A DNA stretch of 64,000 nucleotides from Anaerolineae bacterium (lineage in GTDB: Bacteria; Chloroflexota; Anaerolineae; Aggregatilineales; UBA3940). The DNA is taken from assembly GCA_034435375.1 (NCBI GenBank), contig DAOTXR010000048.1, forward strand, positions 272,984 through 336,983, given 5' to 3'. The translations under genes and the position numbers were made by a program. The notes beneath the pieces were generated by a model. The model saw only the letters and a program-made list of their open reading frames with translations. It was not told the DNA's origin and made no database searches. Positions 9,857 to 28,199 of this stretch are shown piece by piece (within the stretch, counting starts at the first letter, position 1; each line of letters opens with the position of its first letter).

Positions 9857-10092
9857 GGTAGAACCTTTCTAAATGGCCCCAAACGTCAAAGAGACTCATC
9901 CCCTACCACCCTTAGCCCGCACCCCATTCCACCTGATCGGGCGGTCGGTACAGGATCATAGCAAATTTGATGCCAGAGAGCACATCTGCTCCAGCTCCAA
10001 TATAATGGGCAGCCGGAAGCAACTGCTATCTGCAGCGGATCTTACTCGTTTGCAATCTCAGAGAAGCCATTAACCAGCAAGCGGGGATGGAT

Positions 10093-13000
10093 TCAGATTT
10101 GACTGTGAAGGGCGGCCTTCTTTCTGGCTTCTCGCTCCTCATGCCGGTACCATGTCAACAGCACAGCAAACCACAGGATCAACATCAGGAAGGCAATTCC
10201 TACAATGCACTGCAAAGCTGGCAGGCAGAACTCCGTGTTGCCCAGGCTGACACATACCAGACTCGTCCGCCTCCAGCTCGCTGGCCCTGGCGCGCCGCCA
10301 GAGGGAGACGACTCCGGTCCAGACTCGGCTGAGGCTGGGGCTGTACCTCCTCCGGCGCCCTCCATGCCGACTTCCGGTCCCTTAGGCGAGTTCTTACCAA
10401 ACGACGACAACCCACCACTCTCCCCCGGCGCGAGAGCGAGGTCACCACAGGATGTCACTGGCGCAATGCCATCGGCGCTCAGTGTAGCGCAGGCAGTAAT
10501 TTTGCCGCCTGGCGCAGCATCAGTGGCAAGAATCTGAAAGCTCACCGTTACCACTTCATTGGGGGCCAGTGTATCCAGATGCACCTGGGCCTGATTAGGG
10601 GAGAGCGTCACCAGGCCACGCGGAAGCGTGCCACCGACAATCACGCCCGGTTCAGAGATCGTAACCTCAAACGTCACGTTGGTGAGGGTGTCGTCGCTGG
10701 TGTTGCTCAGGGTGGTTGTCAGGTTGGTAACTCCGCCCTCCGTGGTCTGCTGAACATCCGGAAGCACCTCTACGGCCAGAGGGCTATCCGAAGGTGTGGT
10801 ATCTCCGCTTTCTCCTTCCTCACCGCCCGCCTCCGCTTCGCTGGAGTCTGAAGGTGAGGTGTCCGGAGCGGTGGATGCTGGCGGGGTAGCCCCGGATGAT
10901 GGCGGAGTCCGGGTAGGTTCGCTGGCGGCCCTGACAGACACACTCACCAGGGCAGTGTCGCACAGGTTCGTGGCATCGCATACCTTATAAGTGAAACTAT
11001 CGCTGCCGCTGAAACCACGGTTGGGTGTATAGATGACTGCCCCCACTCCATCGACTGTTGTGCTTCCGTTGCCCGCAGGGATGGTCATCGTGACCGTGCC
11101 AGGGGCAAGATTGCCGTCCACGTCACTGTCATTGGCAACCACATTGATGGTGGTAGGCACACCTGGAGGTGCGGTGGCCGTGTCATCTTTAGCTGTCGGC
11201 GGATCATCGACTGGCGTGACCGTCACTGATACAGTAGCTGAGGTACACAGGCCGCCTGTGTCGCACACCCGATAGGTGAAGCGGTCGGTACCATTAAAGT
11301 TGCGGTCGGGTGTGTAAGTGATAGCTCCCGTGGATGTGTTGACCGACGTTCTGCCTTTTGCCGCTGTTGCTGTCACCGTCACTGTGCTAGGTGAGAGGTT
11401 ATTCTCAGCATCGGCGTCGTTAGACAGCACATTGATGGTCACACTTTTGTCTTCAGTGGTCGTCGCGGTGTCGCTGCTGGCGGACGGAGCCGTGTTGGCA
11501 GCAGCTGCATTGATGGTGATACTCACCGTGGCCGTAGCGCATGCCCCGGATGCATCACACACGCGGTAGGTGAAGGTATCAGCACCCACATACCCAACGC
11601 TGGGCGTATAGGTCACAGCGCCAGTTGTGGTGTTGACTGAGGTGGTGCCGTGTGCCGGCGCTCCGGTCACCGTCACTGAGCTAGCAAGCAGATTGCCATC
11701 TATGTCCGTATCGTTGGCCAGCACGTTGATCGTGACCGCCGTACCCTCGGTCGTCGTGGTCGAGTCGGTGGTCGCCACCGGCGGGTCGTTGACTGCGTTG
11801 ACCGTGACTCCGACCTGGGCCGTGGCGCAGTGGGCATCAGTATCACACACTCGATAGGTGAAGGAGTTACTGCCGAAGAAGTTAGCTCTGGGCGTGTACG
11901 TGATCGCACCAGTGGTCGAGTTGACTGTGGTCGTGCCGTTGGCGGGTGGAACGGTCACTGAGACAGTCCCACCGGGCATGATGGGGCCATCCGGGTCACT
12001 GTCATTGGCCAGCACGTTGATGACAACCGCTGTGTCTTCATTGGTCGTGGCCGTGTCATTGACAGCCACCGGTCCGCCGTCATCCACAGAGAGCACCGTC
12101 ACGCTGACTGTAGCGGTGTCGCATAGCCCCAGCATATCGCATAGCCTGTAGGTGAAACTGTCGCTGCCGTAAAAGCCAGCAGCAGGCGTATAGGTGATCG
12201 CGCCCGTAGCAGGGACTATGGAGGCCGAACCATGGGCTGGTGTAGTCGCCAGGGACACCCAACTGGGCTGCGGCGGCCTTTCAGCATTGCTGTCATTGGC
12301 CAGCACGTTGATGGTCACAGGCGTGTCTTCATTGGTCGTGGCCGTGTCATCGTTGGCGACAGGCGGGTCGTTGACGGAGGTCACTGTCACCGAGACATTA
12401 GCCGTGTCGCAGGCGCCCGCTGCATCACACACCTGGTAAGTGAAAGCATCCTGAGGGGGACTGTTGAAGTTCAGGTTGGGCAGGTAGGTGATCGCTCCTG
12501 TCGTCGCATTGATGCCAGTGATTGTCCCATGCGATGGCCCACTTGTCACCGTGACGGCACCGCCTGGCATGAGAGGGCCATCTGGGTCGCTATCGTTGGA
12601 CAGCACATTGATGACGACAGCCGTGTCCTCATTCGTGGTAGCTGAGTCGTTTGCGGCTATCGGAGGGTCGTTCACGGCAACTACTGTAATGCTGACGGTA
12701 GCCATGCCGCACAGGCCGCCTGCGTCGCACACCCGATAGGTGAAGCTGTCCGACCCGTTGTAGTTACCATTGGGAGTGTAGGTCACAGCTCCTGTCGCCG
12801 GGTTAACCCCCGTGCTGCCATTGGCAGGGCCACTCATCACTGTGACAGTGCCGCCTGGCATGATGGGACCTTCTACATCGCTGTCATTGGCCAGCACAGC
12901 GATCACGACAGCGCTGTCCTCGTTGGTCGTGGCCGTGTCATTGTTAGCTGTGGGCGGATCGTTGACAGCATTGACGTTCACGCTGACCGTGGCCGTATCA

Positions 13001-14922
13001 CATGCACCGGCGCTGTCGCACGCTTCGTAAACAAAGGTATCACTGCCGTTAAAGTTCAAGACTGGCGTATAGGTGATGGCGCCTGTGCTTGGGTTAACCG
13101 ATGTACTGCCGTGTGCAGGTCCGCTGATCACTCTGACTGTGCTGGCCAGCGGCCCACCATCTTCTACGTCGGAGTCGTTGCCCAGCACGTTGATAACAAC
13201 AGCTGTGTCCTCGTTAGTCGTGGCTGTGTCGTCGTTGACAAGCGGGGGGTTGTTTAGAATAAGTGTGACATTGACAGCCACACTGGCTGTAGCGCACAGC
13301 AAAGTCGCATCACACACCTGGTACGTAAAGGCATCTGGGCCGGTGTAGCCAGGACTTGGTGTATAGGTGATGGCCCCAGTGGTTGGATTCACCGAGGTGC
13401 TACCACTCGTCGGACCACTGGTCACCGCGACAGTGCCCCCCGGCATGAGAGGGCCATCCGGGTCGCTGTCGTTCGCCAGCACGTTGATCACAACTGGCGT
13501 GTCGATGGTCGTGGATGCGGAGTCATTAATAGCTACCGGAGCATCATCCACTGCGACGACTGTCACACTCACTGCGGCTTCGCTGGAGCAGGCTCCTCCC
13601 GAATCGCACGCCTGATAGGTGAAGCTGTCCGCGCCGTTGAAATTGGACGCAGGCGTGTAGGTCACCTGGCCTGTGGTGCCGTTGACCGATGTGCTCCCGT
13701 GGGCTGGGCTGCTCATCACCGCGACAGTGCCACCTGGCATGATGGGACCTTCCGGGTCGCTGTCGTTCGCCAGCACGTCGATAGCTACAGCAGTGTCCTC
13801 GCTTGTGGTGGCCGAGTCATCCCCTGCCAGCGGCGGATCGTTCACTGCCGTGACTGACACAGTCACGCTGGCGTTTGAACATGCACCACCTCCGTCACAC
13901 ACCTGGTAGTCGAAGGTGTCTCCACCGTAGAAGTTAGCAGCTGGGGTGTAGGTGACGGCCCCCGTGGTTGGATTGACCGTCGTGCCTCCATTGGCCGGAC
14001 CGCTGATGACAGCCACCGAACCGGGTATAAGCGTCCCTTCCACATCGCTGTCGTTCGCCAGCACGTTGACTACGACGGCAATATCTTCATTCGTGGTAGC
14101 CGAGTCATTGGCAGCCAGAGGCGGATCGTTCACTGCGTTGATGGTCACGCTGACCGTGGCTGTGTCGCACAGGCCACCTAGATCGCACACCTGGTAGACA
14201 AAACTATCGGAACCATAGATGTTGAGGTTAGGCGTGTAGGTGACGGCCCCTGTTGCCGGGTTCACGGATGTGGTGCCATTCGCAGGTGCACTTGTCACCT
14301 GGGTTGTGCTCGGATCGAGGTTGGGTAGCCCGTCAGGGTCGGTGTCGTTGGCCAGGACATCGATGATGGCTGCCACATCCTCGTCAGTCGTGGCTGTGTC
14401 GTCGTTGGCCGCTGGTGGACTGTTGCCGGGATCGAAGGTGATGCTGCACGTCCCCTGGTCGGTGGTGAAGCCAATGGAAAAGGGTCCATTAACGCTGCTG
14501 ATCCCAGTAGTAAAGGTAAGCACCAGGGTCGTATTGGTTGAGCCGCCGATGGACGTATCTGTGATGTTCGCAGTGATAGGGCCTGGGCCTGCAATGCCGC
14601 CAGGTTGGTTCCAAACTGTGTTTCCAGACGGGAGGCTAACAGTCTCCAGTTTTGTGGAGTTCCCCCAAGAGATCTGAAGCTCTTGGACTACGACCAGCGA
14701 TGGATCGTTGTTCCTGATGTATATAGTGATGCTCTTGTTGGTTGGCTCTCCAAGCGCGTTGCCCCTGTAGACCATCGAGCAGCTCGACGCCTGGGCAACA
14801 ATGGAAAACATGCCACCTAGTATACCGGCAAGCACCATGATCAGCGGCAGTGCAATACCGATATGCCAGGGGCGCTTAATAATACTTGTCACGAAGCCTC
14901 GCTTATGCACGGCCTCTGACAA
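10093..14922 (-). CDS. 1609-aa cell-surface protein with 12 cadherin-like 'tandem-95' repeats, a DUF11/CARDB-like module and a C-terminal TM anchor
   Basis: N-terminal signal/anchor IALPLIMVLAGILGGMFSIVAQA. 12 repeats of the form NDPPxAxxDxATTxEDTAVxINVLxNDSDxxG ... YTP..G.DSFTY.VCD..G.C..A. Ser/Pro/Thr/Glu-rich linker, then TNLTTTLSNTSDDTLTNVTFEVTISEPG. C-terminus CIVGIAFLMLILWFAVLLTWY followed by RHEEREARKK. TTG start 8 nt after AGGGAG. Confidence 0.93.
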   Translation of the reverse strand: MSEAVHKRGFVTSIIKRPWHIGIALPLIMVLAGILGGMFSIVAQASSCSMVYRGNALGEPTNKSITIYIRNNDPSLVVVQELQISWGNSTKLETVSLPSGNTVWNQPGGIAGPGPITANITDTSIGGSTNTTLVLTFTTGISSVNGPFSIGFTTDQGTCSITFDPGNSPPAANDDTATTDEDVAAIIDVLANDTDPDGLPNLDPSTTQVTSAPANGTTSVNPATGAVTYTPNLNIYGSDSFVYQVCDLGGLCDTATVSVTINAVNDPPLAANDSATTNEDIAVVVNVLANDSDVEGTLIPGSVAVISGPANGGTTVNPTTGAVTYTPAANFYGGDTFDYQVCDGGGACSNASVTVSVTAVNDPPLAGDDSATTSEDTAVAIDVLANDSDPEGPIMPGGTVAVMSSPAHGSTSVNGTTGQVTYTPASNFNGADSFTYQACDSGGACSSEAAVSVTVVAVDDAPVAINDSASTTIDTPVVINVLANDSDPDGPLMPGGTVAVTSGPTSGSTSVNPTTGAITYTPSPGYTGPDAFTYQVCDATLLCATASVAVNVTLILNNPPLVNDDTATTNEDTAVVINVLGNDSDVEDGGPLASTVRVISGPAHGSTSVNPSTGAITYTPVLNFNGSDTFVYEACDSAGACDTATVSVNVNAVNDPPTANNDTATTNEDSAVVIAVLANDSDVEGPIMPGGTVTVMSGPANGSTGVNPATGAVTYTPNGNYNGSDSFTYRVCDAGGLCGMATVSITVVAVNDPPIAANDSATTNEDTAVVINVLSNDSDPDGPLMPGGAVTVTSGPSHGTITGINATTGAITYLPNLNFNSPPQDAFTYQVCDAAGACDTANVSVTVTSVNDPPVANDDTATTNEDTPVTINVLANDSNAERPPQPSWVSLATTPAHGSASIVPATGAITYTPAAGFYGSDSFTYRLCDMLGLCDTATVSVTVLSVDDGGPVAVNDTATTNEDTAVVINVLANDSDPDGPIMPGGTVSVTVPPANGTTTVNSTTGAITYTPRANFFGSNSFTYRVCDTDAHCATAQVGVTVNAVNDPPVATTDSTTTTEGTAVTINVLANDTDIDGNLLASSVTVTGAPAHGTTSVNTTTGAVTYTPSVGYVGADTFTYRVCDASGACATATVSITINAAAANTAPSASSDTATTTEDKSVTINVLSNDADAENNLSPSTVTVTATAAKGRTSVNTSTGAITYTPDRNFNGTDRFTYRVCDTGGLCTSATVSVTVTPVDDPPTAKDDTATAPPGVPTTINVVANDSDVDGNLAPGTVTMTIPAGNGSTTVDGVGAVIYTPNRGFSGSDSFTYKVCDATNLCDTALVSVSVRAASEPTRTPPSSGATPPASTAPDTSPSDSSEAEAGGEEGESGDTTPSDSPLAVEVLPDVQQTTEGGVTNLTTTLSNTSDDTLTNVTFEVTISEPGVIVGGTLPRGLVTLSPNQAQVHLDTLAPNEVVTVSFQILATDAAPGGKITACATLSADGIAPVTSCGDLALAPGESGGLSSFGKNSPKGPEVGMEGAGGGTAPASAESGPESSPSGGAPGPASWRRTSLVCVSLGNTEFCLPALQCIVGIAFLMLILWFAVLLTWYRHEEREARKKAALHSQI
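10935..14421. repeat. 12 diverged tandem coding repeats of ~291-300 bp (tandem-95 type)
   Basis: The protein-level periodicity is described above. The regular series of ~81-aa antisense ORFs in the track (11033, 11318, 11627 ... 14240) mirrors the period. Confidence 0.85.
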
Positions 14923-14927
14923 TCACA

Positions 14928-16184
14928 TCACTCCCTACTTAACTGCAGGGTCGTCACATTGCCAACACTATCTGTTGCTTTAATTATAATCACATTTGAT
15001 TCAACCGCGAACTCAATTTCAAAGTAGCCGCTGGCATCCACCGTCACTGTCTGGCCATCCACCGTGACAATGGTACCGGGTTCCGTTTGTCCGCTGATCT
15101 TGACTGTGGACCCGACAGGTGGGAGCGCGGCAGGGCTAAGCAGCGCCAGAGGCGGCGGTGTGATGTCGCCACTCTGCGGCTGGACGTTGAGAGGCTGCCC
15201 AACAGCTGCCGTAACCTCTTCACCCTGGCGCACGTCCACCATCTGTTCGCCCAACTGGACGGCCACAATGCCCTCGTCGACGGCTACATAGGTGGCGTCG
15301 TCGCTAAGCACGCCCACCAGGAATGCAGTGCCCCGCACCGAAGCCGTTGAAGACGGCGTGCTGATCTGGAATGTCTCGTCAGCGCCTAGCAGTCGCCGCA
15401 CCCGGCTATACACGCTCCCTGCCAGCAGTCTCAACTGTACTTGGCTGGAGCCGGCGCCCGACGTCCGGAGCGTTGCCAGATCAACCGTGGCCCCTTCGTA
15501 CAGCTCCACGGTGCTGCCATCTGCCATGCGCAGCTGCGCTGTCGAACCAGGGCCAAGCACGATCGCATCGCTCTCCCGGATCGTGATCGCGCCACCTGCC
15601 GGGATCACCGTCTGAGTGCGAGTAGAGAACAACACCAGTATCGGTCTGGCCTGGGTGATGGTCGCCTGGCCTGCCGAGACCACTAACGTAGCATCGGCGC
15701 GAGTGGCTGGCTGGGCGAGAAAAGCGACCGCAGCGACAAAGATCACAGCGAGTAGAGCAATCCCCACTGCTAATATCCGACGATTCAACATGATCCCCTC
15801 CCATATACCTGGTTTTCTGACTATTCCGGACCCGTGGACGCTTGAAGCTCGTCCCAGACTGGAGACTTCCACTCTCTCAGCCTGATGCACGAACCGGGCG
15901 AGCGTCTCTCTGTCGACGCCAACGTAAGCCGCAATCTGCGCCACGTCTCTGGTGTAACGCAACCCATGCGTTGGGCGCCGACACAGCGCCAGCTTGGCAA
16001 GCTGCACAACATCGATGTGCAGCATTGTCGCAATCTGCTCCCAACTCAGATTTTCGGCCCTCCGATATCCTCCAATGAGTGAAGCCAGAAGCCGTCTATT
16101 TTGCTCGGCTCGTTGGGCCATTGTGATCAACAACTCATCTCCCATTTTGTATGCTGCCCTTCCCGACAGGCTGCTTTGCCCCAT
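14928..16184 (-). CDS. Membrane-tethered regulator: N-terminal HTH-like segment, one TM helix, extracytoplasmic FecR domain, C-terminal Ig-like domain
   Basis: HTH-like LSWEQIATMLHIDVVQLAKLALCRRP. TM ILAVGIALLAVIFVAAVAFLA. FecR-like GSTAQLRMADGSTVELYEGATVDL...FQISTPSSTASVRGTAFLV. Ig-like tail VKISGQTEPGTIVTVDGQTVTVDASGYFEIEF. The stop lies 5 nt before the adhesin start. An alternative start is ATG 16145. Confidence 0.8.
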   Translation of the reverse strand: MGQSSLSGRAAYKMGDELLITMAQRAEQNRRLLASLIGGYRRAENLSWEQIATMLHIDVVQLAKLALCRRPTHGLRYTRDVAQIAAYVGVDRETLARFVHQAERVEVSSLGRASSVHGSGIVRKPGIWEGIMLNRRILAVGIALLAVIFVAAVAFLAQPATRADATLVVSAGQATITQARPILVLFSTRTQTVIPAGGAITIRESDAIVLGPGSTAQLRMADGSTVELYEGATVDLATLRTSGAGSSQVQLRLLAGSVYSRVRRLLGADETFQISTPSSTASVRGTAFLVGVLSDDATYVAVDEGIVAVQLGEQMVDVRQGEEVTAAVGQPLNVQPQSGDITPPPLALLSPAALPPVGSTVKISGQTEPGTIVTVDGQTVTVDASGYFEIEFAVESNVIIIKATDSVGNVTTLQLSRE

Positions 16185-19596: not shown

Positions 19597-22509
19597 CTAT
19601 TGCTCATCTCTTACCAGCCGGAACCCGATCAGTTGAACCCTCGCTTGCGGTTCACCTGGGCGGCGCTGCGTGCAGTGGATGTTCTGCCGCAAGCTGTCGT
19701 AGGCTCCACCTCGCAGGACACGCGGCCCGGGAGCAGTCAGGTCCTCACGTCCATCCTCAGACTGATAAGGGTAGCCCAGCATCAGGCTACTACACCACTC
19801 CCACACATTGCCGGCCATGTCGTAGATGCCTTCGGGGGTTTTGTCATGTGGAAAGATGCCAACCGCTGTTGTCTGCCCAACGCCGGCTTCACGGGCATTG
19901 GCGACATCGTCGCTGGCCCGACTTCCAAAGGGATATCTTCGATGCTCCAGACCGGCTGCTGCTCGTTCCCACTCTGCCTCGGTCGGCAGGCGGTAGGGTC
20001 TGCCGGTCTTTTTCTTTAGCCAGTTTGCGTAGGCCACCGCTTCATACCAGGTGACTCCCACTACGGGCCGGTTAGCAGTTCCCCATACAGGATCGTAGGC
20101 GTAGCCGCCCGGTTCACCAGCACGTTTACGCCACTCCCACCCTGCGCTCGTCCAATATTCTGATCGACGGTACCCACCGTCCTCAATAAAGGCGCGGAAC
20201 TGAGCGTTGGTCACCGGGAAGCGGGCCATCTGAAAGGGCTTGAGCGACACAGGGCACCGCTCTCCCTCATCGCCTATCTCGTAAGGTCCTCCTGAGATGG
20301 GCACCATCTCCGGTTCCAAGGAGCACACGCCAGGGCGAGGATCGCCCAGCCAGCCGAGCACGTCAGCGGCCTGGGCTCGCTCGATGGGCGTCAGATGCCC
20401 GCCTGTGACCAGAGCAACCAGTTGGTTGATGACCTGCAGCACAATGCGCTTGCCGACATATTCATCCTGCTCGGCTGCCGGACGACCTACAATAGCTAAC
20501 ATCTCTGCTGCCCACCACACCAAACGCCACCCGGCAGAGTCAGAGGGTGGAGCAGGAGGACACAACAGGCTAATGGCATCTAGAGGAATGTGGACGTTCT
20601 GTTGGTTGTAAACTAGGTGGCCCACTGCCAACAACAGCACTTCGTGCCAGATGTCGCCCTGGGTCGCCAGCCGGGCCACCCGACGCGCAAAGTCCCTGTC
20701 GGTGACCAAGTGCCGTCCGGCCAGAAACTCTTGGAACCCTCGGTGCAAGAAGGCGTAAGTCTGCTCACCCCGGCCATCCCTTCCACGGCTGACCAGCAAC
20801 CCGGCCTGTGCCTCGATGTACTCGCAGAACTTCTGCGCTTTGCCCCAATCGCCATCCAGGTAGATTTGTAGAATGCGCAGCACGTCGGCCTGAGGGATAT
20901 TGGCTGCCAGAGCTTGTTGGTCTTGTGTGCTGTGGGCGTGGAAAGCCACCTCGCACAGCCCATTGACCAGCCGCTCCTCGCGAGTCTGAAGCTGATCAAG
21001 GATACCTGGTTCCCATCCACCTGTGGCGAGCCGCTTAGTGCGCTGCCATTCCCACAGCAGCAGTTTCACACAGTCGTCGTACAGGCGGGCGCGCTCGCGC
21101 GGCAGTGTACCTTTGTAGGTGTGCACGAGGGCCATTACAGTCAGCAGCATGGGGTTCTGGGCCAGGTCGTGCAGGTGACGGGTAGCGTTACGCAGTTCCT
21201 CGGCCTTGACCTTTGCAAGACGTTCGCTCAAGTATCCTAGGCGAGCCAGATTGTTGTACCAGTGCTCGACGAATGTGTCGATGCTCTGCTGGCTCAGCGG
21301 CGCCAGTGTGACCGCTGGGAAGCTGGTCAACTGCCAGGCTGGATCGGTGTAAGACAGCACGCGGCAGGCGACAATGAACTGACTGCGTGGATAGCGGTCG
21401 GCAAAGTCAGTCACCGCATCCCGCACGATCTGGCGCAGCGGCGCCACCGTGATCTCATCTAGACCGTCAAAAAGCACCAGGCATAATCCGCGGTTGAGCA
21501 GGTCCAGGATACGACCGGCAAAGTCGCCCAGGTTGCGCTCAGCTAGCTGAGTTGTGATGTGAGACCAAACCATCGAGGCCGTACCACGCCGGGCATCTGG
21601 CGGGATGCTGCGCACAAAGTCGCGCAGATCGATCCTCACCGGCAGGAGCACCTCCCGCTTCCAGGTCACTGCCTTACGACGCCCCTGGCGGGGAACGGTG
21701 AGGCGCTCCAGATAGCCCCGCTTAGGGTATAGGCGTGCCCCGGCCAGACACAGTGTCAGAAAGTTGAGGAAGGTGGTCTTCCCTGATCCTGGATCACCGA
21801 GGATCACCAGCCGGCGATTGCGCAGGACGGCATCCAGGGCCGGCACCGGGACGCGGTCATCGAAGCCGTCTCGCTGTCGCAGTGCAGCCTGGGTTCGCAT
21901 AATGTCCAGCGGGACGTAAATTGTGTCGAGCCGGACATCCAGCGCCGAACGATCAGGCGAAGCCATATCCAGATTCAGCTCACCTAGCGGGATGCGATTA
22001 GCCACAGTGATCAGCCACCACAGGTATTCACGTTCCACATCGCTGATGGGGGCATCTTCTGACGGAGTCTGTTTGCCATAGACCAAAGTGTCGACGTGGC
22101 CGATCACCACCTCTCCCCTGAGAATGTCACGCGCGGCCGCCCCGCCGTGGATGACCGATGTGCCTTCGCCGACCACTGCGCCGGGCATCACATCGCCCGT
22201 TGTGTTCGAGTCGCGGCCCGTGACAGGCATCGGAGACGCATCAGGGTGAGGCAAGCGCGGGGGGGCCGAGGGTGCTCTGTCAACCACGTCACGCAATTCG
22301 TCGGCGATGACCATCCGCATCTGATCGATCAGCCGGGAGAGACGATCGTTTTGGTCAGCGCCCTTACCAGCAGCAAGCAGCGCCTCCAGCTCCTTGAGCA
22401 TCTCGCGCAGACGTTCCCGCTCGGAATGGCTCAGGTGTGGTGGATCGAGTGGCTGACCGTCGGAAGGTTGCATTGAGGACGGCCTCCGAACAACAGGCAA
22501 GTTAGACAT
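19597..22509 (-). CDS. STAND NTPase, NACHT-type, with C-terminal FGE-sulfatase (SUMF1) fold domain
   Basis: Pre-NACHT motif EREYLWWLITVANRIPLGELNL...LDTIYVPLDI. Walker A LVILGDPGSGKTTFL (about 21770-21800). Walker B CLVLFDGLDEI. FGE domain (about 19600-20307): RFPVTNAQFRAFIEDGGY, RPVVGVTWYEAVAYANWL, YRLPTEAEWERAAAG, GNVWEWCSS, RVLRGGAY, IGFRLV. The N-terminal ~150 aa is coiled-coil plus a Gly/Val-rich segment with no recognisable enzyme domain. Confidence 0.92.
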   Translation of the reverse strand: MSNLPVVRRPSSMQPSDGQPLDPPHLSHSERERLREMLKELEALLAAGKGADQNDRLSRLIDQMRMVIADELRDVVDRAPSAPPRLPHPDASPMPVTGRDSNTTGDVMPGAVVGEGTSVIHGGAAARDILRGEVVIGHVDTLVYGKQTPSEDAPISDVEREYLWWLITVANRIPLGELNLDMASPDRSALDVRLDTIYVPLDIMRTQAALRQRDGFDDRVPVPALDAVLRNRRLVILGDPGSGKTTFLNFLTLCLAGARLYPKRGYLERLTVPRQGRRKAVTWKREVLLPVRIDLRDFVRSIPPDARRGTASMVWSHITTQLAERNLGDFAGRILDLLNRGLCLVLFDGLDEITVAPLRQIVRDAVTDFADRYPRSQFIVACRVLSYTDPAWQLTSFPAVTLAPLSQQSIDTFVEHWYNNLARLGYLSERLAKVKAEELRNATRHLHDLAQNPMLLTVMALVHTYKGTLPRERARLYDDCVKLLLWEWQRTKRLATGGWEPGILDQLQTREERLVNGLCEVAFHAHSTQDQQALAANIPQADVLRILQIYLDGDWGKAQKFCEYIEAQAGLLVSRGRDGRGEQTYAFLHRGFQEFLAGRHLVTDRDFARRVARLATQGDIWHEVLLLAVGHLVYNQQNVHIPLDAISLLCPPAPPSDSAGWRLVWWAAEMLAIVGRPAAEQDEYVGKRIVLQVINQLVALVTGGHLTPIERAQAADVLGWLGDPRPGVCSLEPEMVPISGGPYEIGDEGERCPVSLKPFQMARFPVTNAQFRAFIEDGGYRRSEYWTSAGWEWRKRAGEPGGYAYDPVWGTANRPVVGVTWYEAVAYANWLKKKTGRPYRLPTEAEWERAAAGLEHRRYPFGSRASDDVANAREAGVGQTTAVGIFPHDKTPEGIYDMAGNVWEWCSSLMLGYPYQSEDGREDLTAPGPRVLRGGAYDSLRQNIHCTQRRPGEPQARVQLIGFRLVRDEQ

Positions 22510-22584
22510 GGCTGCATCTTACCTCGCTTTTGCCGGCAGACGTACTTCCCTCTAAAATAGTTGCCATCCCTAAAGGAGTCTCTA

Positions 22585-23088
22585 ATGTCAGACAAACCTG
22601 ATCCTAATCCAAATGACGAAAAAGAGGAAGTCGAAGAGAAGGGCTATGCCGTTGGTGGAGATCATATTGTGGTGCAGGGAGATGTAGGTGTAGGAGCCAG
22701 CATTGGACGGGGCTATGTTCAGGCAGATTACATCGCAGGGCGCGATTTGATCATTGCTACGGATGAAGTCCCGAAGGCCGACGACAAGAAGCAGTTTGCT
22801 GACCTCATGATCAAGCTGCGCGATCTGATCATCAAGGCTCACCAAGCCGGTGAACTCAGTGAACGCACTGCCAAAAAAGCGTTAGGGCATCTGGCTACGA
22901 CAGCCGAGCTGGTTGCAAAAGAAGAAAAGCCACCCAAAAACCAGATCTTGAGCCGGCTTCAGTACGTAGCCGACGTGCTCGATGCCGCGGTGGACTACTT
23001 GAGCACGAGCGGCGGCGCTGCCCGGGTGGTACTCCAGGCGCTGCCTATCGCGACACTGTTGATCAAGATCGCCAGCCGCTTATTCTGA
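22585..23088 (+). CDS. Hypothetical 167-aa protein between the two STAND genes (acidic N-terminus, short Gly/Val-rich beta-like segment, helical C-terminal half with hydrophobic tail)
   Basis: ATG 22585 lies 6 nt after AAGGAG (22573-22578). Visibly more AT-rich than its neighbours. Sequence MSDKPDPNPNDEKEEVEEKGYAVGGDHIVVQGDVGVGASIGRGYVQADYIAGRDLII...VVLQALPIATLLIKIASRLF. No family recognised. The stop overlaps the 3' end of the convergent gene by 9 nt. Confidence 0.6.
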   Translation: MSDKPDPNPNDEKEEVEEKGYAVGGDHIVVQGDVGVGASIGRGYVQADYIAGRDLIIATDEVPKADDKKQFADLMIKLRDLIIKAHQAGELSERTAKKALGHLATTAELVAKEEKPPKNQILSRLQYVADVLDAAVDYLSTSGGAARVVLQALPIATLLIKIASRLF

Positions 23089-26000
23089 TTCGGCGCGTGC
23101 TGGCAAACGAGGGATAGCAGGCCGCGCACGCTCAACGATCCAGTTCAGCGCCCACAGCAGTTCATCCTGAGCGCGGCTCTCGGCCTCCCACGAGGCATGG
23201 GGCGTAAGCTCCACCAGTGCGTCGGCTACGTCGCGTGCCACAGCTAGCATGTCCTCGCCGCTCAGGGGGGGATCGGGCAGGTTGCGGATCAGATGGCCCA
23301 GCGTAATGGCAGCCGCGCGGCGTACCTCTCCCGTCCCATTCTTGAGGTGCTCCCGTAGAATATGTAGCGTGTTCGACCCGACCGTGCGGGCATGGGCCAG
23401 GCTACGCAGGGCGGCTGCACGCACATGCGGGCTTTCGGCGGGGTTGGTTGCATCAAGCAGAATCTGTAGAACGGCTGAAGTGTTGTCCAGGGCTTGGCCC
23501 AAGACCTCCAGTGCTAGTGCCCGCAAACCAACCGCTGCCCGTCGGGCCTGGCTCGATCCAAACTCGCGCTGTACGGCCAGGTCCATGACGTGGTTGATCA
23601 CTTCTGGCGGGAGTGGTGCATGCGCCTGGAGACAGGCCACTATCTCTCGGCCAGCATTTTCCCAATGGGTGCGCAGCGCTTGCACCAGAACCAGCAACGC
23701 CTGATTGGATAGGCCACGCAACGCAGCCAGCGCCCGGATTGCCTTCAGCCCAATGGGATGGTCGGGCATGGCAGCCAGCGCCATCAGGTAGTCGATGATC
23801 TCAGGACCAGGATCCTTAAGGTGCCGGATTGTCTCCAGCGTTGTCTCACGCACGAGCATCTCGCGATCGCTCAGGAGCACATATAGCGCATGGCGAAGAT
23901 CGTCATTCAGTTCCGGGACATGACGGAGCGCCGCTGCCACTGCTCGCCGCACATGATAGATTGGATCGCTGATCATGTGGGCCAGCGCATGTGTTGCTTG
24001 GGCTGATCTCCAACCCTTGCGGGCCAGCGGCTCAACCACCGCTGCCCGAACACTGTCTGCCGGGTCATCCAGCCGCTCCACCAACGCAGCCAGCACCTCT
24101 GGCGTTTCATTGCGGCAGGTGCCCAACGCCATTGCCGCTGCCAGGCGAACACCCACATCCGGATCGTCAGTCCATCGCGCAAGTTGGCTGATAACTCCAG
24201 AAGGCAGCTCAATCGGACGGGCCAGGGCGTTGATTGCCATCACACGCACTGGCGGCTCAGCCTCGGCAATGGCCCGGCAGATTGCTGCCATTGCATCGTC
24301 TGGCAGGTTCGAGACGTTGGCCAGCGTGTCGACTGCCCTCTGCCTGATCACAGGGTCATCATCGTCCAGCAACCGTAGCAACTCACCAACTACCTGGGGC
24401 GGTAGCGACCCAGCCTGTTTGAGCCGCCTCAGGCTCACCCGTCGCCTGACTGGGTCGTCGCTGTGCAGGAAGTCAACCCACATGTTCAGGACCTCGTAAG
24501 GGATCGGCGCTGCAGCTTCGAGCGTCCGCTGGCTGGCTGTGCACACCTGCTCATCGGGATCGGAGGTGAGCATCAATAGCAGTACATAAGCCTCTCGAGA
24601 TAGGCTGCCGACGCGGCCCAAAGCTTCCACGATGGCACGTCGCACCAGCAGCGGAGCTTCACGCCCATGCGCCACCAGTGCATCGCGCCCCTCGACTAAG
24701 TGGGCAGGCCAGAACGTCACAGCATCAGCAGCAAATGCCTGGATGTGCTCGTCCGGTGCGGCGAGGTTGTCGATAGCGATCTGCAACGCGCGATGGCTAG
24801 CCGGTGTGCCATTCAGATTGACCAGGTGACGGCGAGCGCGGTCGTAGATCAGGCTGAACCGTCCCAGACTGTCCCGATCCCCTTCCAGCCACAGCTGCAT
24901 CAGTTGTCTGACGATCTCGCGCGTCAACTCTGCACGCACCTCGACGCCGCTGCCCAGTAGCCGGGCTGCAAAGAACAGATCGCGCTTGAGCAGCGACTCG
25001 AAGGGACTGGAGGCATGTCCAAACTGGGCTGCCCGCTCACCACGGGCGAGGATTGCTGCCTCAACCAACTCGGTCGCGTCATCCACTGATCGAAGTGAAG
25101 TGAAGCCCACAGCCAATGTGATGACCTCATCCCAGCGCGGATCGTGCAGGCGCTCACGGATGCGTTGTGCAGCCAACCGATAGCTGGAGACTAAGTAGCG
25201 TGCCGCGAAGTACTCCTGAAGCCCGTGATAAATGAAGCCATAGCGCTGGGGAGCTAGCTCGATCAACACGCCGGAATGTACGCGCATCCGACCCAGAAAG
25301 TCCCCAATCGCGTCGCTTACCTGCTGTGGCGATGCCTCCGGATGCATCTGGCTCCAGATCCGCCCCAGGATCTCGCGCAGCTCGTGCTCGCGCAGCATTC
25401 CGGTCGGGCGTGAAGCCTGCATCCAGAAGGCTAGCTCAGCAAGCAGAGGAGTCGCCTCCTGCTCCAGCACCGACGGCGGACTGGTGGAACCTTGGGGCAG
25501 CCGCCACTCGCGGATCAGGGCCTCAGCTACCGTCTGGTAGATGGCCACCTGTTGGGGGACAAGTACCATCCCCGGATGGAATACGCCCACCAGCATCCGC
25601 AAGAGCAGAGGATTGCTGCCCAGCGTGTACAGACGTGGATTGCCTGTGATCTGGCGGGCCAGGGCTAGCGTATCCGAGTGGGCTTGACGCAGGACCTCGT
25701 CATCGCCCACCAGGGGGCGCTGGACTCGGGTCAGTGTCAGCTTCCAGCGCAGCAACAGGGAGTTGATCTGGCTACGCTCCAAAGGCTGAATGATATACGC
25801 AGCAAAATCGCGAGGAAGTGGCGTCGTGTGATAGCCTACGAACCGACTGGTGACAACAGTGCGGTTCCCCGTGGCCCGCCAGCCCATCGACGCCTCAGTG
25901 ATGCTGGCCACCAACATTCGCCGTTGGTCGTCACTGGCTGCCTGGTCGAGGCCATCCAGCAGTAGGAGGCACTGTCCATTTTCGATCAGCGCCGCAAGCA

Positions 26001-27156
26001 GCGATCCAACCCCCTCGTCGCCGGTAAGCTCAATGGCAGTCCGCAGCATGAAATCTTCAAGCGTCTCGTCGGCATGATGATCCTCAACAAAGTCAGCCAG
26101 GTCGATATAGATCGGAAGGGGACGAGTCAGCCTAAAGTTGCGGGCGGTGCCCTCTCCGCCTTCAGGCGATGGACTGCCAGGCTGAGATTCCAACAGGATG
26201 CGGGCATGCTCAAAGACGAGATGGCGCAGCAACGTAGTCTTGCCTGCCCCACTGTCACCCAGGATAAGCACCTGGGGGTGATGGGTAAGCACCTCGTTTA
26301 CCATCTCGCCAGTACAGTTTTCCAGCTCGCGGTAGCCCAATGGCTCGCGAAAGGTTCTCAACTCTGAGTCTTCATGCCCAGCAAGCTGATACCGCATGTA
26401 ATAGACGGGCTTATCATAGGCCGAGAGTGGTACCAGGCGTAGAGGGATATATACGTCGCTTAAGGGAACCGTAGTGTGAACGCTGCGCGGGTACCCGCGC
26501 GGGTCAATGTGACCGATCCGCTCGCTGCATGCCGTGAGGTAAGCTGTAAGTGTGGCCTCGTTGAAGTGTCCACTGTGCAGAGCCGCCAGGTTTATCCCCG
26601 CTGGGCGTGCGGAGGCTGGTTCTCTTACAGGCAGGGCTTCGAGCAAATGCAGGATCTCTTCACAGACAAACAAATCTTCGAAGACAGGAGTCTGATCGAT
26701 CAGGCATTGCTCCACGATGTCCATGAAGGTCTGCATGGGGATGATCCAGTCTCCCCACGAGCGTGGCAGAGTTCGTCCTGTCTCGATTGTCACGGAACGT
26801 TGCAGCTCAGGATATATATCCCACAGCGCATCCGCTGCGCCCTGGAACCCGAAAAGGAAAGCTTGCCATAGACCTTCGGTGAAGGGGCGTTGTGCTGAGC
26901 CACTGTAACGCAGTAGATCGGCAAAGTGCTCCAGCCAACGTTCGTGCGTGGCTGCATAGCTGCGGAACTCATCCTGAGCTTGATCAAAGGCAGCTGGCAG
27001 ATCGCTGTTTTCAAGTGAGTCCTGAAGCCAATGCTCGACTATCACATAGGCCGTTGAATCCAGAGCATCTCCGTAGTCACGGGCACGCTCAAATAAGGAT
27101 TCCAACAGCCGTGTCCCAGCCTGACTTAAGGCCGTCGTGATTAGCGAGATGGGCAT
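23080..27156 (-). CDS. STAND NTPase, NACHT-type, with ~230-aa helical N-terminal domain and long C-terminal HEAT-repeat array
   Basis: VPLSDVYIPLRLVPL pre-NACHT motif. Walker A VLILGDSGAGKTTLLRHL. Walker B CLLLLDGLDQA. At least 10 HEAT/PBS-lyase-type repeats (about 23169-24669), e.g. DDPVRRRVSLRRL, DDDPVIRQRAVDTLANV, EPPVRVMAINALAR, DDPDVGVRLAAAMALG, DDPADSVRAAVVEPLAR, DPIYHVRRAVAAALRHV. Confidence 0.92.
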   Translation of the reverse strand: MPISLITTALSQAGTRLLESLFERARDYGDALDSTAYVIVEHWLQDSLENSDLPAAFDQAQDEFRSYAATHERWLEHFADLLRYSGSAQRPFTEGLWQAFLFGFQGAADALWDIYPELQRSVTIETGRTLPRSWGDWIIPMQTFMDIVEQCLIDQTPVFEDLFVCEEILHLLEALPVREPASARPAGINLAALHSGHFNEATLTAYLTACSERIGHIDPRGYPRSVHTTVPLSDVYIPLRLVPLSAYDKPVYYMRYQLAGHEDSELRTFREPLGYRELENCTGEMVNEVLTHHPQVLILGDSGAGKTTLLRHLVFEHARILLESQPGSPSPEGGEGTARNFRLTRPLPIYIDLADFVEDHHADETLEDFMLRTAIELTGDEGVGSLLAALIENGQCLLLLDGLDQAASDDQRRMLVASITEASMGWRATGNRTVVTSRFVGYHTTPLPRDFAAYIIQPLERSQINSLLLRWKLTLTRVQRPLVGDDEVLRQAHSDTLALARQITGNPRLYTLGSNPLLLRMLVGVFHPGMVLVPQQVAIYQTVAEALIREWRLPQGSTSPPSVLEQEATPLLAELAFWMQASRPTGMLREHELREILGRIWSQMHPEASPQQVSDAIGDFLGRMRVHSGVLIELAPQRYGFIYHGLQEYFAARYLVSSYRLAAQRIRERLHDPRWDEVITLAVGFTSLRSVDDATELVEAAILARGERAAQFGHASSPFESLLKRDLFFAARLLGSGVEVRAELTREIVRQLMQLWLEGDRDSLGRFSLIYDRARRHLVNLNGTPASHRALQIAIDNLAAPDEHIQAFAADAVTFWPAHLVEGRDALVAHGREAPLLVRRAIVEALGRVGSLSREAYVLLLMLTSDPDEQVCTASQRTLEAAAPIPYEVLNMWVDFLHSDDPVRRRVSLRRLKQAGSLPPQVVGELLRLLDDDDPVIRQRAVDTLANVSNLPDDAMAAICRAIAEAEPPVRVMAINALARPIELPSGVISQLARWTDDPDVGVRLAAAMALGTCRNETPEVLAALVERLDDPADSVRAAVVEPLARKGWRSAQATHALAHMISDPIYHVRRAVAAALRHVPELNDDLRHALYVLLSDREMLVRETTLETIRHLKDPGPEIIDYLMALAAMPDHPIGLKAIRALAALRGLSNQALLVLVQALRTHWENAGREIVACLQAHAPLPPEVINHVMDLAVQREFGSSQARRAAVGLRALALEVLGQALDNTSAVLQILLDATNPAESPHVRAAALRSLAHARTVGSNTLHILREHLKNGTGEVRRAAAITLGHLIRNLPDPPLSGEDMLAVARDVADALVELTPHASWEAESRAQDELLWALNWIVERARPAIPRLPARAESE

Positions 27157-27251
27157 TCGGATTGGCTCTTTCCGATCACCGATCTAGGGCAAGTTCTCCT
27201 CAAAACCTGCCCCGATCATGTTATGCTGTTTAAGGTTTCTGGCCTGTGCCG

Positions 27252-27279
27252 TTCTGCATGTGTTTTGCTTTGTTATAAT
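27252..27279 (+). promoter_or_regulatory. Putative sigma-70-type promoter in the AT-rich divergent spacer
   Basis: TTCTGC (27252-27257), 16-nt spacer, TATAAT (27274-27279), 57 nt upstream of GTG 27336. Pattern match only. Confidence 0.35.
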
Positions 27280-27335
27280 TGCGTTTGTGATGATATACTA
27301 ATCTGCAAATTTTCGAAACTCAATGGGCTCCACTC

Positions 27336-28199
27336 GTGGACTCTGTCGAATTCTGGCCCTACCTGCTGATTCTGCCTGCCCTTGTGCTGGGGACGCTCTT
27401 GGCACATCTATGGCACGTGTGGCGTCAGCGCGCATTGCGAGGCCAAACCGACAGGACTCATGCTCTTGCCTCAAAACGCCACGAACTCCGGACAGGCGAA
27501 GCAGAACTGGTCAGCATCGAGTCACGCCTGATGATCCTGAATCAACAGATTGCTGCGGCGCGGCGCAATCTGGAAGAACAAGAGGCCGAATACAAACGCA
27601 TCCTGCTATCCCTTGACGAGCACCATGCCTCGCTCCAGAACGCTCACAGGGCTTTGCGCAACGTGCAGCAAAACCTGTCAAATGAACGGTCTAGGACCGA
27701 TACAATACTGACCGATATCGATGCCAGCATCGAAGAGCTTGACATGCTGACTCAGCTCAGCGAGACCTACAACACCAAGATCGCCCGTCTTACTCAGCAG
27801 GTTCAGTGGCAAGACGGCGAACTACAAATGCTACGTCAAGCAGTGAAGGCTAAGACCTCCGAGATCGACGAAGCTCGAGCCCTGATCGAACAGCGCGAGA
27901 CAGAACTCCGACGGCTTATTCGTCAGCGTCAACAGCGCGAAGCCGATATCGCAAGAGTCCGTCAGCAGATCATCCAGAGAAATGAGGAACTCCGCAGGCT
28001 GCTTGAATTTCAGGAGCAAGGTGGCCAGACTCTTGAAACCTCTCCCGCTTTTCTGGCGCGGAGCAGCCAAATTGACGTGACGCCTCCTCCGCGTCCCATG
28101 CTGCTCTCAGGGAATGCGATTGACATGGGCGGCAAAGCCGGCCCACTAGACCCCCAGGACGACATTAGTGATGACACCGTAGCGCTCGGTCCCAGTTGA
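27336..28199 (+). CDS. Membrane-anchored long coiled-coil protein, function unknown
   Basis: N-terminal TM FWPYLLILPALVLGTLLAHLW. About 200 aa of heptad-like Q/E/R/L-rich sequence (EAELVSIESRLMILNQQIAAARRNLEEQEAEYKRIL...RQRQQREADIARVRQQIIQRNEELRRLL). Pro/Asp-rich tail. GTG start. Confidence 0.7.
   Translation: MDSVEFWPYLLILPALVLGTLLAHLWHVWRQRALRGQTDRTHALASKRHELRTGEAELVSIESRLMILNQQIAAARRNLEEQEAEYKRILLSLDEHHASLQNAHRALRNVQQNLSNERSRTDTILTDIDASIEELDMLTQLSETYNTKIARLTQQVQWQDGELQMLRQAVKAKTSEIDEARALIEQRETELRRLIRQRQQREADIARVRQQIIQRNEELRRLLEFQEQGGQTLETSPAFLARSSQIDVTPPPRPMLLSGNAIDMGGKAGPLDPQDDISDDTVALGPS

Follow-up and report, generated by a model that had tools for sequence, protein, structure and literature searches.

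A candidate receptor/effector pair with a common Gly/Val-rich motif in a conserved four-gene cassette of Anaerolineae

At positions 19597–28199 of a 64,000-nucleotide stretch of an Anaerolineae bacterium genome (GenBank assembly GCA_034435375.1, contig DAOTXR010000048.1; the whole stretch is referred to here as the window), two large NTPase genes bracket a small open reading frame (ORF) on the opposite strand, with a gene for a membrane protein beside them. Do these four genes belong together and, if so, how would two receptors without a recognisable enzymatic effector pass on a signal? An earlier reading, made from the letters alone (the sequence-only reading), had proposed a defence locus in which two sensors may share a trans component. 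The four ORFs lie exactly where that reading had placed them: gene A (19597..22509, minus strand; 970 amino acids, aa), encoding a NACHT-FGE protein of the type of the NOD-like receptors (NLRs); gene S (22585..23088, plus strand; 167 aa); gene B (23080..27156, minus strand; 1358 aa), encoding a NACHT-HEAT NLR-like protein; and gene C (27336..28199, plus strand; 287 aa), encoding a transmembrane (TM) helix followed by a coiled coil. All four are real genes and not chance ORFs, because orthologues of each, 42–61% identical, exist in other genomes. Our answer, drawn by analogy with characterised systems and in our judgement evenly balanced between right and wrong, is that A (as the NLR) and S (as its effector) may be a pair of the amyloid-signalling type within a conserved four-gene module.

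A motif common to receptor A and the small protein S

A Gly/Val-rich motif of ~35 aa occurs on the receptor side (A aa 97–133; 22111..22221, minus strand) and on the partner side (S aa 22–58; 22648..22758, plus strand). The sequence-only reading had seen both the Gly/Val-rich stretch of A and the small ORF, but it listed them as separate items and missed what they have in common; judged by profile comparison, the A stretch and the S N-terminus are the same motif. Its consensus is VGGDHIVIgGDVGpGAnIGRGSVxADYIAGGDL in the S family and gDsIxVgGdvgPGAnVGxGtvxxGgvAGRDxv in the A family. Alignment of 16 S proteins with 50 A N-termini using hhalign gave a match of 35 columns with a probability of 97.9%, an E-value of 3.8e-13 and a score of 78.7, eight orders of magnitude better than reversed-sequence controls (score 34–37, E around 1e-5). 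A hidden Markov model (HMM) built only from S proteins detects the A N-termini, down to E 5e-11, one built only from A detects the S proteins, down to E 2e-12, and neither has another match at E <0.01 among the 14,433 ORFs of 95 loci plus the window. Given this specific and reciprocal detection, we rejected the view that the motif is mere low complexity. At the DNA level, no similarity or inverted repeat was found between the A and S motif-coding regions.

The motif is enriched in Gly (2.3–2.5x), Val (1.6–1.8x), Ile (1.8–2.7x) and Asn (~3x), and depleted in Leu (0.17–0.19x) and in Pro. Such a G/V/I/N-rich, L/P-poor composition matches that of published bacterial amyloid signalling sequences (10.1101/2020.01.06.895854); Gln is not enriched here. 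Genes A and S are 75 bp apart, and in A the motif lies N-terminal to the nucleotide-binding and oligomerisation domain (NOD). The divergent region between them (22510..22584) holds the Shine-Dalgarno sequence of S (AAGGAG, 22573–22578, 6 nt 5' of the ATG at 22585), as well as a promoter-like site at 22530–22558 on the plus strand, which is a weak match of a kind whose count is not above chance; an alternative upstream TTG start at 22561 would extend S to 175 aa. The GC content of S is 0.54, compared with 0.60–0.61 for A and B, which, together with the position of its Shine-Dalgarno sequence, bears out the earlier description of a small, AT-richer ORF with a strong ribosome-binding site.

No family could be assigned to S (Pfam with E up to 10, NCBIfam, PADLOC and a PDB sequence profile search). 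Its 16 close homologues, which are 45–57% identical, lie on contigs shared with A homologues. An AlphaFold2 model based on a 16-sequence alignment places aa 8–61, including the motif, at a predicted local distance difference test (pLDDT) score <50, and predicts a four-helix bundle over aa 65–166 (22777..23082, plus strand) at pLDDT 87–96, with helices at 65–87, 93–112, 118–142 and 147–166. The last helix (aa ~145–166, consensus ALPIAALLIKIAxRxF) has a Kyte-Doolittle hydropathy of 1.5–2.0 over 19 aa in all orthologues and could, to judge from that value, insert into a membrane. A Foldseek comparison of the bundle with the PDB returned only generic bundles, the best at E 0.03. The proposal that the small ORF belongs to the system is supported by its fixed placement between A and B and by the motif that it has in common with A.

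Receptor A has the tripartite layout of the signal transduction ATPases with numerous domains (STANDs), with a coil and the motif at the N-terminus, a NACHT module and a C-terminal FGE (formylglycine-generating enzyme) arm. Its NACHT module (aa 232–419; 21253..21816, minus strand) scores 30.1 bits against a Pfam cutoff of 26.7, and YVPL (residue 198), Walker A GDPGSGKT (238) and Walker B LVLFDGLDE (344) are all present. The FGE-sulfatase domain (PF03781) at aa 732–967 (19609..20316, minus strand), which has a C-type-lectin-like fold and is the sensor arm, was rightly called complete, as it matches profile positions 2–255 of 255 at E 8e-47. Its nearest relatives in the PDB are ToxD, CalU17 and EgtB, ahead of catalytic FGEs. 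The Cys pair of catalytic FGEs would be expected in a C-terminal GGS(F/Y)xC...C segment; compared through the A-family consensus, the corresponding stretch after GGAY reads LRGGAYDSxRxxIHCTQRR, with a single Cys that falls outside the columns conserved at >=90%. This domain is thus probably a binding domain and not a catalytic FGE, as far as sequence comparison can tell. In the search for a template repeat of a diversity-generating retroelement (DGR) for the last 504 nt of A, no repeat >26 nt was found in the 64-kb window; for reverse transcriptase, the search was not exhaustive.

More than 60 full-length relatives of A are known, 47–61% identical and all from metagenome-assembled genomes (MAGs) of Anaerolineae type. 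Many remoter NACHT-FGE proteins carry other N-termini, namely TIR_2, CHAT, DUF4062, zinc ribbon or metallophosphatase domains, and the TIR_2, CHAT, DUF4062 and metallophosphatase cases indicate that the motif of A sits at the effector position. The helical or coiled region that precedes the motif (aa 1–96; 22222..22509, minus strand) has no Pfam match and is the fastest-evolving part of A; among eight cassettes, identity is 22% in the N-terminal coil, 32% in the motif, 60% in NACHT and 62% in the FGE domain. The A N-terminal region as a whole could not be assigned to a family by Pfam (E up to 10), NCBIfam, PADLOC or a PDB sequence profile search. In the public annotation, gene A starts 12 codons later, at Met13 (958 aa; the difference lies within window 22474–22509). 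Orthologues keep the upstream N-terminus MSNLPVVR as MxNLPxxR, which makes 22509 (970 aa) the probable true start.

An exhaustive HMMER search, in which the S profile was run against 1.84 billion representatives, identified 126 relatives. About 30 of these are S-like in size (160–170 aa), and many longer ones hold the motif-plus-bundle module C-terminally, behind another domain. The N-terminal partners include EAD7 (32 of 125), EAD1 (3), TCAD2 (2), caspase (3), CHAT (1) and DUF4062 (1) domains; Kaur et al. (2020, PMC7159879) describe EAD7, an effector-associated domain (EAD), as bringing effectors to NTPase conflict systems. Longer relatives of S also carry GDx(V/I)xGDK-type repeat arrays resembling beta-solenoid repeats. 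All members of the family that were seen are unannotated or named only 'hypothetical protein'.

Two of the relatives, in independent Chloroflexi loci, stand just upstream of an NLR-type gene that has its own copy of the motif. At one locus (L096–L098), 25 bp separate the gene of the EAD7-motif-bundle protein P0170 from a collinear NB-ARC/TPR NLR gene downstream of it; the NLR (L098) starts MTEESSPTEQTNFQGNVTGSAVGGGTVNAHNIAGRDI, with the motif at its extreme N-terminus, and P0170 has IHGNVIGGVVGGGSVQAENIAGRDI. At the other (L105), P0192 has GGNVIGNLGDGDFNNEGQIAMGDI, and the next gene downstream starts DGNVIGNLGDGNFTNTGQIASGNI, a differently diverged version of the motif; that gene is partial, the contig ending after 91 aa, and the pre-NB-ARC sequence that follows its motif is like that of the L098 NLR. 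Identity between the motifs within each pair (49% for L098, 47% for L105) is the highest for all four sequences. At the sequence level, this pair-specific matching is as expected of receptor/effector signalling motifs, and both pairs have the canonical features, in that the NLR motif is extreme N-terminal and the genes are collinear. A caspase-motif-bundle protein was likewise found near an nSTAND1 NTPase and an EAD7 protein.

EAD7-motif-bundle genes in L096–L098 (4700–10200) and L103–L104 are directly downstream of ParA/ParB and near a P22_AR_N antirepressor-like gene; in L096–L098 a short-chain dehydrogenase/reductase (SDR) gene lies between ParA/ParB and the EAD7-motif-bundle gene, and in L104 no downstream gene was called. 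A plasmid or prophage context is suggested for the EAD7-module relatives; scans of viral contigs turned up neither S-like nor P0170-like genes. One further protein, P0224 (L099 82–1443; MAG GCA_034435135.1), has a TM segment at its N-terminus and joins the Gly/Val motif to an FGE-sulfatase domain without NACHT, and its gene adjoins an S-methyltransferase/methylenetetrahydrofolate reductase (MTHFR) gene like that at window 51676–53550.

The cassette and its partners B and C

The sequence-only reading had implied that homologues of the four genes should co-occur in other genomes, and that the locus should not be strictly syntenic core genome in all relatives. Both expectations hold. In tblastn searches of the DNA around S and A homologues with all four proteins, the order and orientation A(−) S(+) B(−) C(+) are kept in every close A orthologue with enough contig, at about ten distinct Anaerolineae loci (the window, L003/L016, L005, L007, L011, L012, L014, L017, L018 and L019; L012 ends inside B, and the position of C is not covered there). 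Identities across the cassettes are 55–61% for A, 38–59% for S, 50–61% for B and 37–46% for C. The flanks vary between genomes, with at least six contexts and no ORF common to the window and any other locus. Outside the close orthologues, 492 NACHT-FGE relatives were confirmed in GTDB genomes across many phyla; among the best 80 loci, which were fetched and of which 76 are remote (<=39% identity), none of the remote loci has S, B or C.

The cassette thus looks like an old, mostly vertically inherited module, the internal order of which is kept while its surroundings change, and B and C are clearly part of it by inheritance. An OsmC-family gene is next to C in 7 of the 10 cassettes (L005, L007, L011, L014, L017, L018 and L019), is 69–76% identical among the loci compared, and is absent beside C in the window and in L003; it may either mark the ancestral position of the cassette or be a loosely linked fifth gene. 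In L003 (4008–7055; MAG GCA_016926255.1), a 1015-aa TPR-CHAT protein is encoded directly beside the 3' end of the A orthologue.

Pfam confirms that both large genes encode NACHT-clade STAND NTPases, one with an FGE arm and one with a HEAT arm. B, like A, is tripartite, having a helical N-terminal domain, NACHT and HEAT repeats, and Walker A (GxxGxGK[TS]) and Walker B (hhhhDGLD[EQ]) motifs are found in both proteins. The pre-NACHT region and NACHT subtype are common to both, at ~25% identity across their NACHT regions. The NACHT module of B (aa ~291–480; 25717..26286, minus strand) scores 28.7 bits against the cutoff of 26.7, and its motifs are YIPL (residue 236), GDSGAGKT (300) and LLLLDGLDQ (397); the earlier assignment of YVPL, GxxGxGKT and hhhhDGLDE to both NTPases hence stands throughout for A, but for B only with respect to the P-loop. 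Pfam HEAT_2 matches six stretches of B at E 1e-33, and a repeat HMM that we built ourselves finds six strong and about six degenerate 33-aa units at aa 837–1295, so that the claim of at least 10 HEAT repeats is roughly right if the degenerate units are counted with the six clear ones (array aa ~837–1296; 23269..24648, minus strand). Searches of Pfam, NCBIfam and PADLOC detected an enzymatic effector domain in none of the four encoded proteins, in agreement with what had been said of the two NTPases.

At the N-terminus of B, aa 1–175 (26632..27156, minus strand) form a Trp-rich helical domain that is conserved in the alignment of orthologues; among eight cassettes, identity is 47% in this domain, 55% in NACHT and 52% in HEAT. 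The domain has no Pfam (E up to 10), NCBIfam, PADLOC or PDB profile match, a word-indexed search found two related proteins, and an AlphaFold2 model of aa 1–285 from a three-sequence alignment (pLDDT 38.5) was unusable. The extreme N-terminus, MPISLITTALSQAG, is a hydrophobic helix with Gly14 in 8 of 10 sequences. Bell, Hell and Bab, as well as Avs2 and some bNACHT proteins, reportedly have a 'MEPIS' helix at the N-terminus; that the B N-terminus resembles it by eye may be taken as a lead.

At its N-terminus, C has a hydrophobic segment (Kyte-Doolittle 1.94 over 19 aa), which is followed by a long coiled coil (~200 aa) and a conserved DVTPxxRPxL tail, consistent with its earlier description as a TM-anchored coiled-coil protein transcribed divergently from B. 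Its orthologues also lie next to B wherever the contig extends beyond B, and family searches (Pfam, PADLOC, NCBIfam) gave only coiled-coil-type matches. The 179-bp region between B and C (27157..27335) is AT-richer and contains a promoter-like site at 27270–27299 on the plus strand, with a TG-extended −10 element, by consensus match only. In the same region, TGTTATAAT (27262–27270) fits an extended −10 element; this sequence and the scanner's TG-preceded site, which ends at 27299, both lie upstream of the GTG start of C. Orthologues of C in L017 (4068–5120) and L019 (3800–4936) have an extra ~60–80 aa at the C-terminus (IPGLxxLYAxQLxxxGIxxFRxLA..., matching HHH_5 weakly at E 0.0016), which the C protein of the window lacks. 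The idea that C is an effector or adaptor did not gain from these analyses, the conserved position of the gene being all that speaks for it.

The convergent 3' ends of S and B overlap by 9 bp in the window (23080–23088) and by 21–60 bp in L003, L005, L007, L011, L014, L017 and L019, with a gap only in L018. This conserved overlap could couple the expression of S and B or make them interfere with one another.

Proposed mechanism and alternatives

The conservation of the cassette, the specificity of the motif, the architecture of S, and the recurrence of its module with matched NLRs and with effector-recruiting domains are what the analysis shows. The mechanism that we propose goes further, by analogy: templating, membrane attack and an immune or cell-death outcome are modelled on HET-S/NWD2, BASS/Bell and Bab/Agp. 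The lectin-like FGE-type domain at the C-terminus of A would bind a conserved ligand, and ligand- and NTP-driven oligomerisation of A would cluster the motif copies located just upstream of NACHT. The clustered motifs might then adopt a stacked beta fold, either cross-beta or beta-solenoid, that could template the N-terminal motif of S, which is predicted to be disordered at rest. Conversion of the S motif would release or rearrange the four-helix bundle, and the freed C-terminal hydrophobic helix may attack the membrane, leading to cell death or growth arrest. B and C are obligatory co-inherited partners, most likely a second receptor and its membrane partner or a regulator.

The closest precedents are the bacterial amyloid signalling sequence (BASS)/Bell pairs (Dyrka et al. 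2020, 10.1101/2020.01.06.895854), which likewise combine an NLR-like NTPase with an adjacent small helical protein through a common short G/V/I/N-rich, L/P-poor motif, N-terminal to the NOD, in filamentous (multicellular) hosts, and in which a disordered motif also stands beside a helical bundle with one hydrophobic helix. There are, however, clear differences. S has its motif in the N-terminal part and the bundle after it, with the hydrophobic helix last, whereas Bell proteins have the reverse layout with the hydrophobic helix first; the motif is ~35 aa here compared with ~25; the arm of A is FGE and not TPR or WD; A and S are divergent, with the A motif internal; and the cassette adds two conserved genes, B and C. 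In E. coli Bab/Agp, the BASS11 amyloid motif signals in antiphage abortive infection (Ibarlosa et al. 2024, 10.1101/2024.11.07.622273), providing experimental precedent for a sensor that activates an adjacent small helical executioner via a common amyloid motif, although Agp is a TPR-GreA/B-PIN protein and not an NLR, and the Bab motif is C-terminal. BASS11 has been reported with EAD7, CHAT, NACHT and NB-ARC (10.1101/2024.11.07.622273), which are also partners of the S module; this overlap is suggestive only. The cassette would thus work like BASS/Bell and Bab/Agp, but it departs from them in two defining features, namely the layout of S, without a detectable Bell domain, and the internal motif of A in a divergent gene pair.

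The fungal NWD2/HET-S pair offers a second parallel, in that a NACHT receptor (NWD2, with its R0 motif) and the product of a neighbouring gene have a templating motif in common, and HET-S joins a helical bundle to an unstructured motif, with a hydrophobic helix released on conversion. That system differs in being eukaryotic, in its N-terminal HeLo and C-terminal prion-forming domain with two pseudorepeats, and in having no second NLR or coiled-coil partner. Linked, co-inherited NLR genes of which one has the signalling element are also found among the paired NLRs of animals (NAIP/NLRC4) and plants (sensor/helper); this is an analogy only, as there is no sign of hetero-oligomerisation here and A and B are ~25% identical in the NACHT region.

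Among bacterial STANDs, the Avs/bNACHT families and the clades with FGE sensors have the same order of N-terminal output, NACHT and C-terminal sensor (PMC13581612; 10.1101/2022.07.19.500537), and FGE-sulfatase-like sensors have been reported explicitly in prokaryotic STANDs (PMC13581612). The cassette differs from these in having no fused enzymatic effector, conserved rather than diversifying sensors and no surrounding defence island. The EAD-coupled conflict systems (Kaur et al. 2020, PMC7159879) are related through the S relatives fused to EAD7, EAD1, TCAD2, caspase and CHAT; their listed components include FGS/FGE domains and HEAT arrays, and they are enriched in multicellular bacteria (PMC7159879). 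The cassette, in contrast, has no EAD, vWA, MoxR or GTPase, its FGE domain has no DGR link, and the Gly/Val motif would do the coupling instead. Pfam found no EAD in A, S, B or C, EAD7 occurring only in remote relatives of S. Against the NCBIfam model NF058535 (antiphage_EruA), A scores 39 bits and B 20.5 bits, compared with a cutoff of 1000, through partial NACHT matches only, and no mention of EruA together with NACHT was found in the literature searched. The cassette lies outside the systems of PADLOC, EruA, the DGR-linked FGE systems and the EAD-coupled systems.

Several observations weigh against an amyloid-type pair, against its role in immunity, or against both. The motif of A is internal (aa 97–133, after ~95 residues) and not extreme N-terminal, and A and S are divergent, whereas 91% of published amyloid pairs are collinear (10.1101/2020.01.06.895854). 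The S and A motifs of the window itself are only 29% identical, and within-locus covariation of the two motifs over 10 cassettes gave a permutation p = 0.11, in what is a weak test, the fixed MAFFT register being imperfect. Neither Pfam nor Foldseek against the PDB detected similarity of the S bundle to Bell or HeLo, and the membrane attack suggested for S is read from hydropathy alone. When compared by hhalign, the B N-terminus showed no similarity to C, to S or to the A N-terminus apart from the pre-NACHT region of A and B, and C showed none to S or A. With respect to immunity, a search of the four proteins with PADLOC-DB v2, including its Avs and bNACHT models, gave only P-loop-level (E >=0.004) and coiled-coil matches; the neighbours in the window are of housekeeping type, such as the MgsA, gyrA, acyl-CoA carboxylase and phosphoenolpyruvate carboxykinase (PEPCK) genes; the sensors (FGE 62%, HEAT 52%) are as well conserved as the rest of their proteins or better, unlike sensors engaged in an arms race; and the adjacency of OsmC in 7 of 10 cassettes suggests largely vertical descent. 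In view of the missing PADLOC match, the housekeeping neighbours and sensors that are among the best conserved parts, the defence role put forward in the sequence-only reading is not upheld, and an antiphage role of the cassette is unproven.

An endogenous, non-immune role is accordingly a serious possibility, given the conserved sensors and the housekeeping context. In its specific form, which is compatible with either mechanism and which we regard as possible but rather unlikely, the cassette would be a lineage-specific signalling system of filamentous Anaerolineae, acting, for example, in the sensing of stress or damage or in the developmental death of cells in filaments, with a conserved endogenous ligand. 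The vertical inheritance of the cassette, its absence from viral contigs and the lack of DGR diversification or PADLOC matches all fit such a role. The company that its components keep elsewhere fits less well: the partners of the S module (EAD7, caspase, CHAT, DUF4062 and TCAD2) and the N-termini of NACHT-FGE relatives (TIR_2, CHAT and metallophosphatase) are typical of conflict systems, the EAD7-module/NLR pairs beside ParAB and P22-antirepressor genes look like parts of mobile elements, and a CHAT-TPR gene adjoins A in L003.

The model of the sequence-only reading, in which A and B are parallel sensors feeding one trans component (S, the membrane protein C, or both), appears unlikely to us. 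The co-inheritance of the four genes in fixed order in about ten genomes is what it would predict, and neither NTPase having an enzymatic effector, the overlap of the S and B 3' ends in most cassettes, and the common pre-NACHT and NACHT subtype of A and B are all in keeping with it. However, the motif that matches S is present in A only, B has no match to either motif HMM, and the profile comparisons of its N-terminus noted above were null; a link of S to both NTPases is thus not borne out. The 175-aa N-terminal domain of B, moreover, sits at the effector position and could itself be an integrated effector.

We consider it comparably improbable that the motif, instead of being an amyloid template, acts as an ordinary homotypic element of the adaptor or oligomerisation kind, EAD- or Death-like or a short beta-helix, with S an adaptor or scaffold that tethers A to some other element, such as the membrane, C or B, and not an executioner. 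That the motif and bundle always occur as one unit, even when fused to the adaptor EAD7, that the bundle is unlike known pore-forming domains, and that longer relatives carry GDx(V/I)xGDK-type, beta-solenoid-like arrays would all be natural for an adaptor. Predicted disorder of the motif in the S monomer argues the other way, as do its length and composition and the arrangement of an NLR with a neighbouring small protein, which match published amyloid pairs, and the pair-specific divergence at L098 and L105, which is as in those pairs. Lastly, that the four genes are unrelated neighbours whose motif likeness is a low-complexity coincidence is extremely improbable and effectively refuted: despite the biased composition of the motif and reversed controls that still reach E around 1e-5, the forward score is eight orders better, the reciprocal HMMs are specific among the 14,433 ORFs, and gene order is kept in about ten genomes at 40–60% identity with varied flanks.

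Genomic surroundings and significance

The window is an ordinary stretch of chromosome, with genes for MgsA, PIG-L, a cyclase, GAF, LiaF-like and radical SAM proteins, gyrA, acyl-CoA carboxylase subunits, homoserine dehydrogenase, PEPCK and histidine kinases; scans for tRNAs and Rfam families gave no match in it. Elsewhere in the window, a 1609-aa protein encoded at 10093–14922 (minus strand) has 12 tandem Big_9/Cadherin_4/Cadherin_5 units. A FecR-domain gene (14928–16184, minus strand) lies directly upstream of this cadherin-type gene and an FHA-domain gene (8687–9856, minus strand) downstream; window 8687–16184 is a possible surface-adhesin operon.

Returning to A and S as a pair of amyloid-signalling type, one may sketch, as a speculation that we consider unlikely to be right, a so far undescribed two-receptor cell-death or signalling machine of filamentous Anaerolineae. 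In this machine A would template S, an executioner of a new class whose layout (motif, bundle and a tail-anchor-like last helix) mirrors that of HET-S and Bell, while B, with its MEPIS-like N-terminus, and C would provide a membrane platform or checkpoint. Given the conserved sensors and the vertical inheritance, the signal may be a conserved endogenous or damage signal, as in developmental or altruistic death of cells in filaments, and not fast-evolving phage proteins, and the motif-plus-bundle module, with its EAD7, caspase and CHAT partners, would represent a widespread, unrecognised effector family in NLR and conflict systems of Chloroflexi.

In the literature searched, we found no description of the fixed dual-NLR cassette, of the motif-plus-bundle effector family or of a NACHT-FGE receptor paired with a member of that family. 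For fungi, amyloid signalling associated with NLRs is established. Bab/Agp is the single experimental case from bacteria, and what bacterial NLR/Bell-type pairs do is still described as unknown. The present system would add a NACHT receptor that has an FGE-type, lectin-like sensor and is coupled to its partner by a motif. It would also add a new effector module in which the motif precedes a four-helix bundle with a hydrophobic last helix, and which is fused as well to EAD7, caspase, CHAT and DUF4062 in Chloroflexi-type systems. That a second NLR and the membrane coiled-coil protein are strictly co-inherited is a hint of NLR pairing in bacteria. If the sensors recognise an endogenous signal, the cassette would have a bearing on the regulation of cell death in multicellular bacteria.

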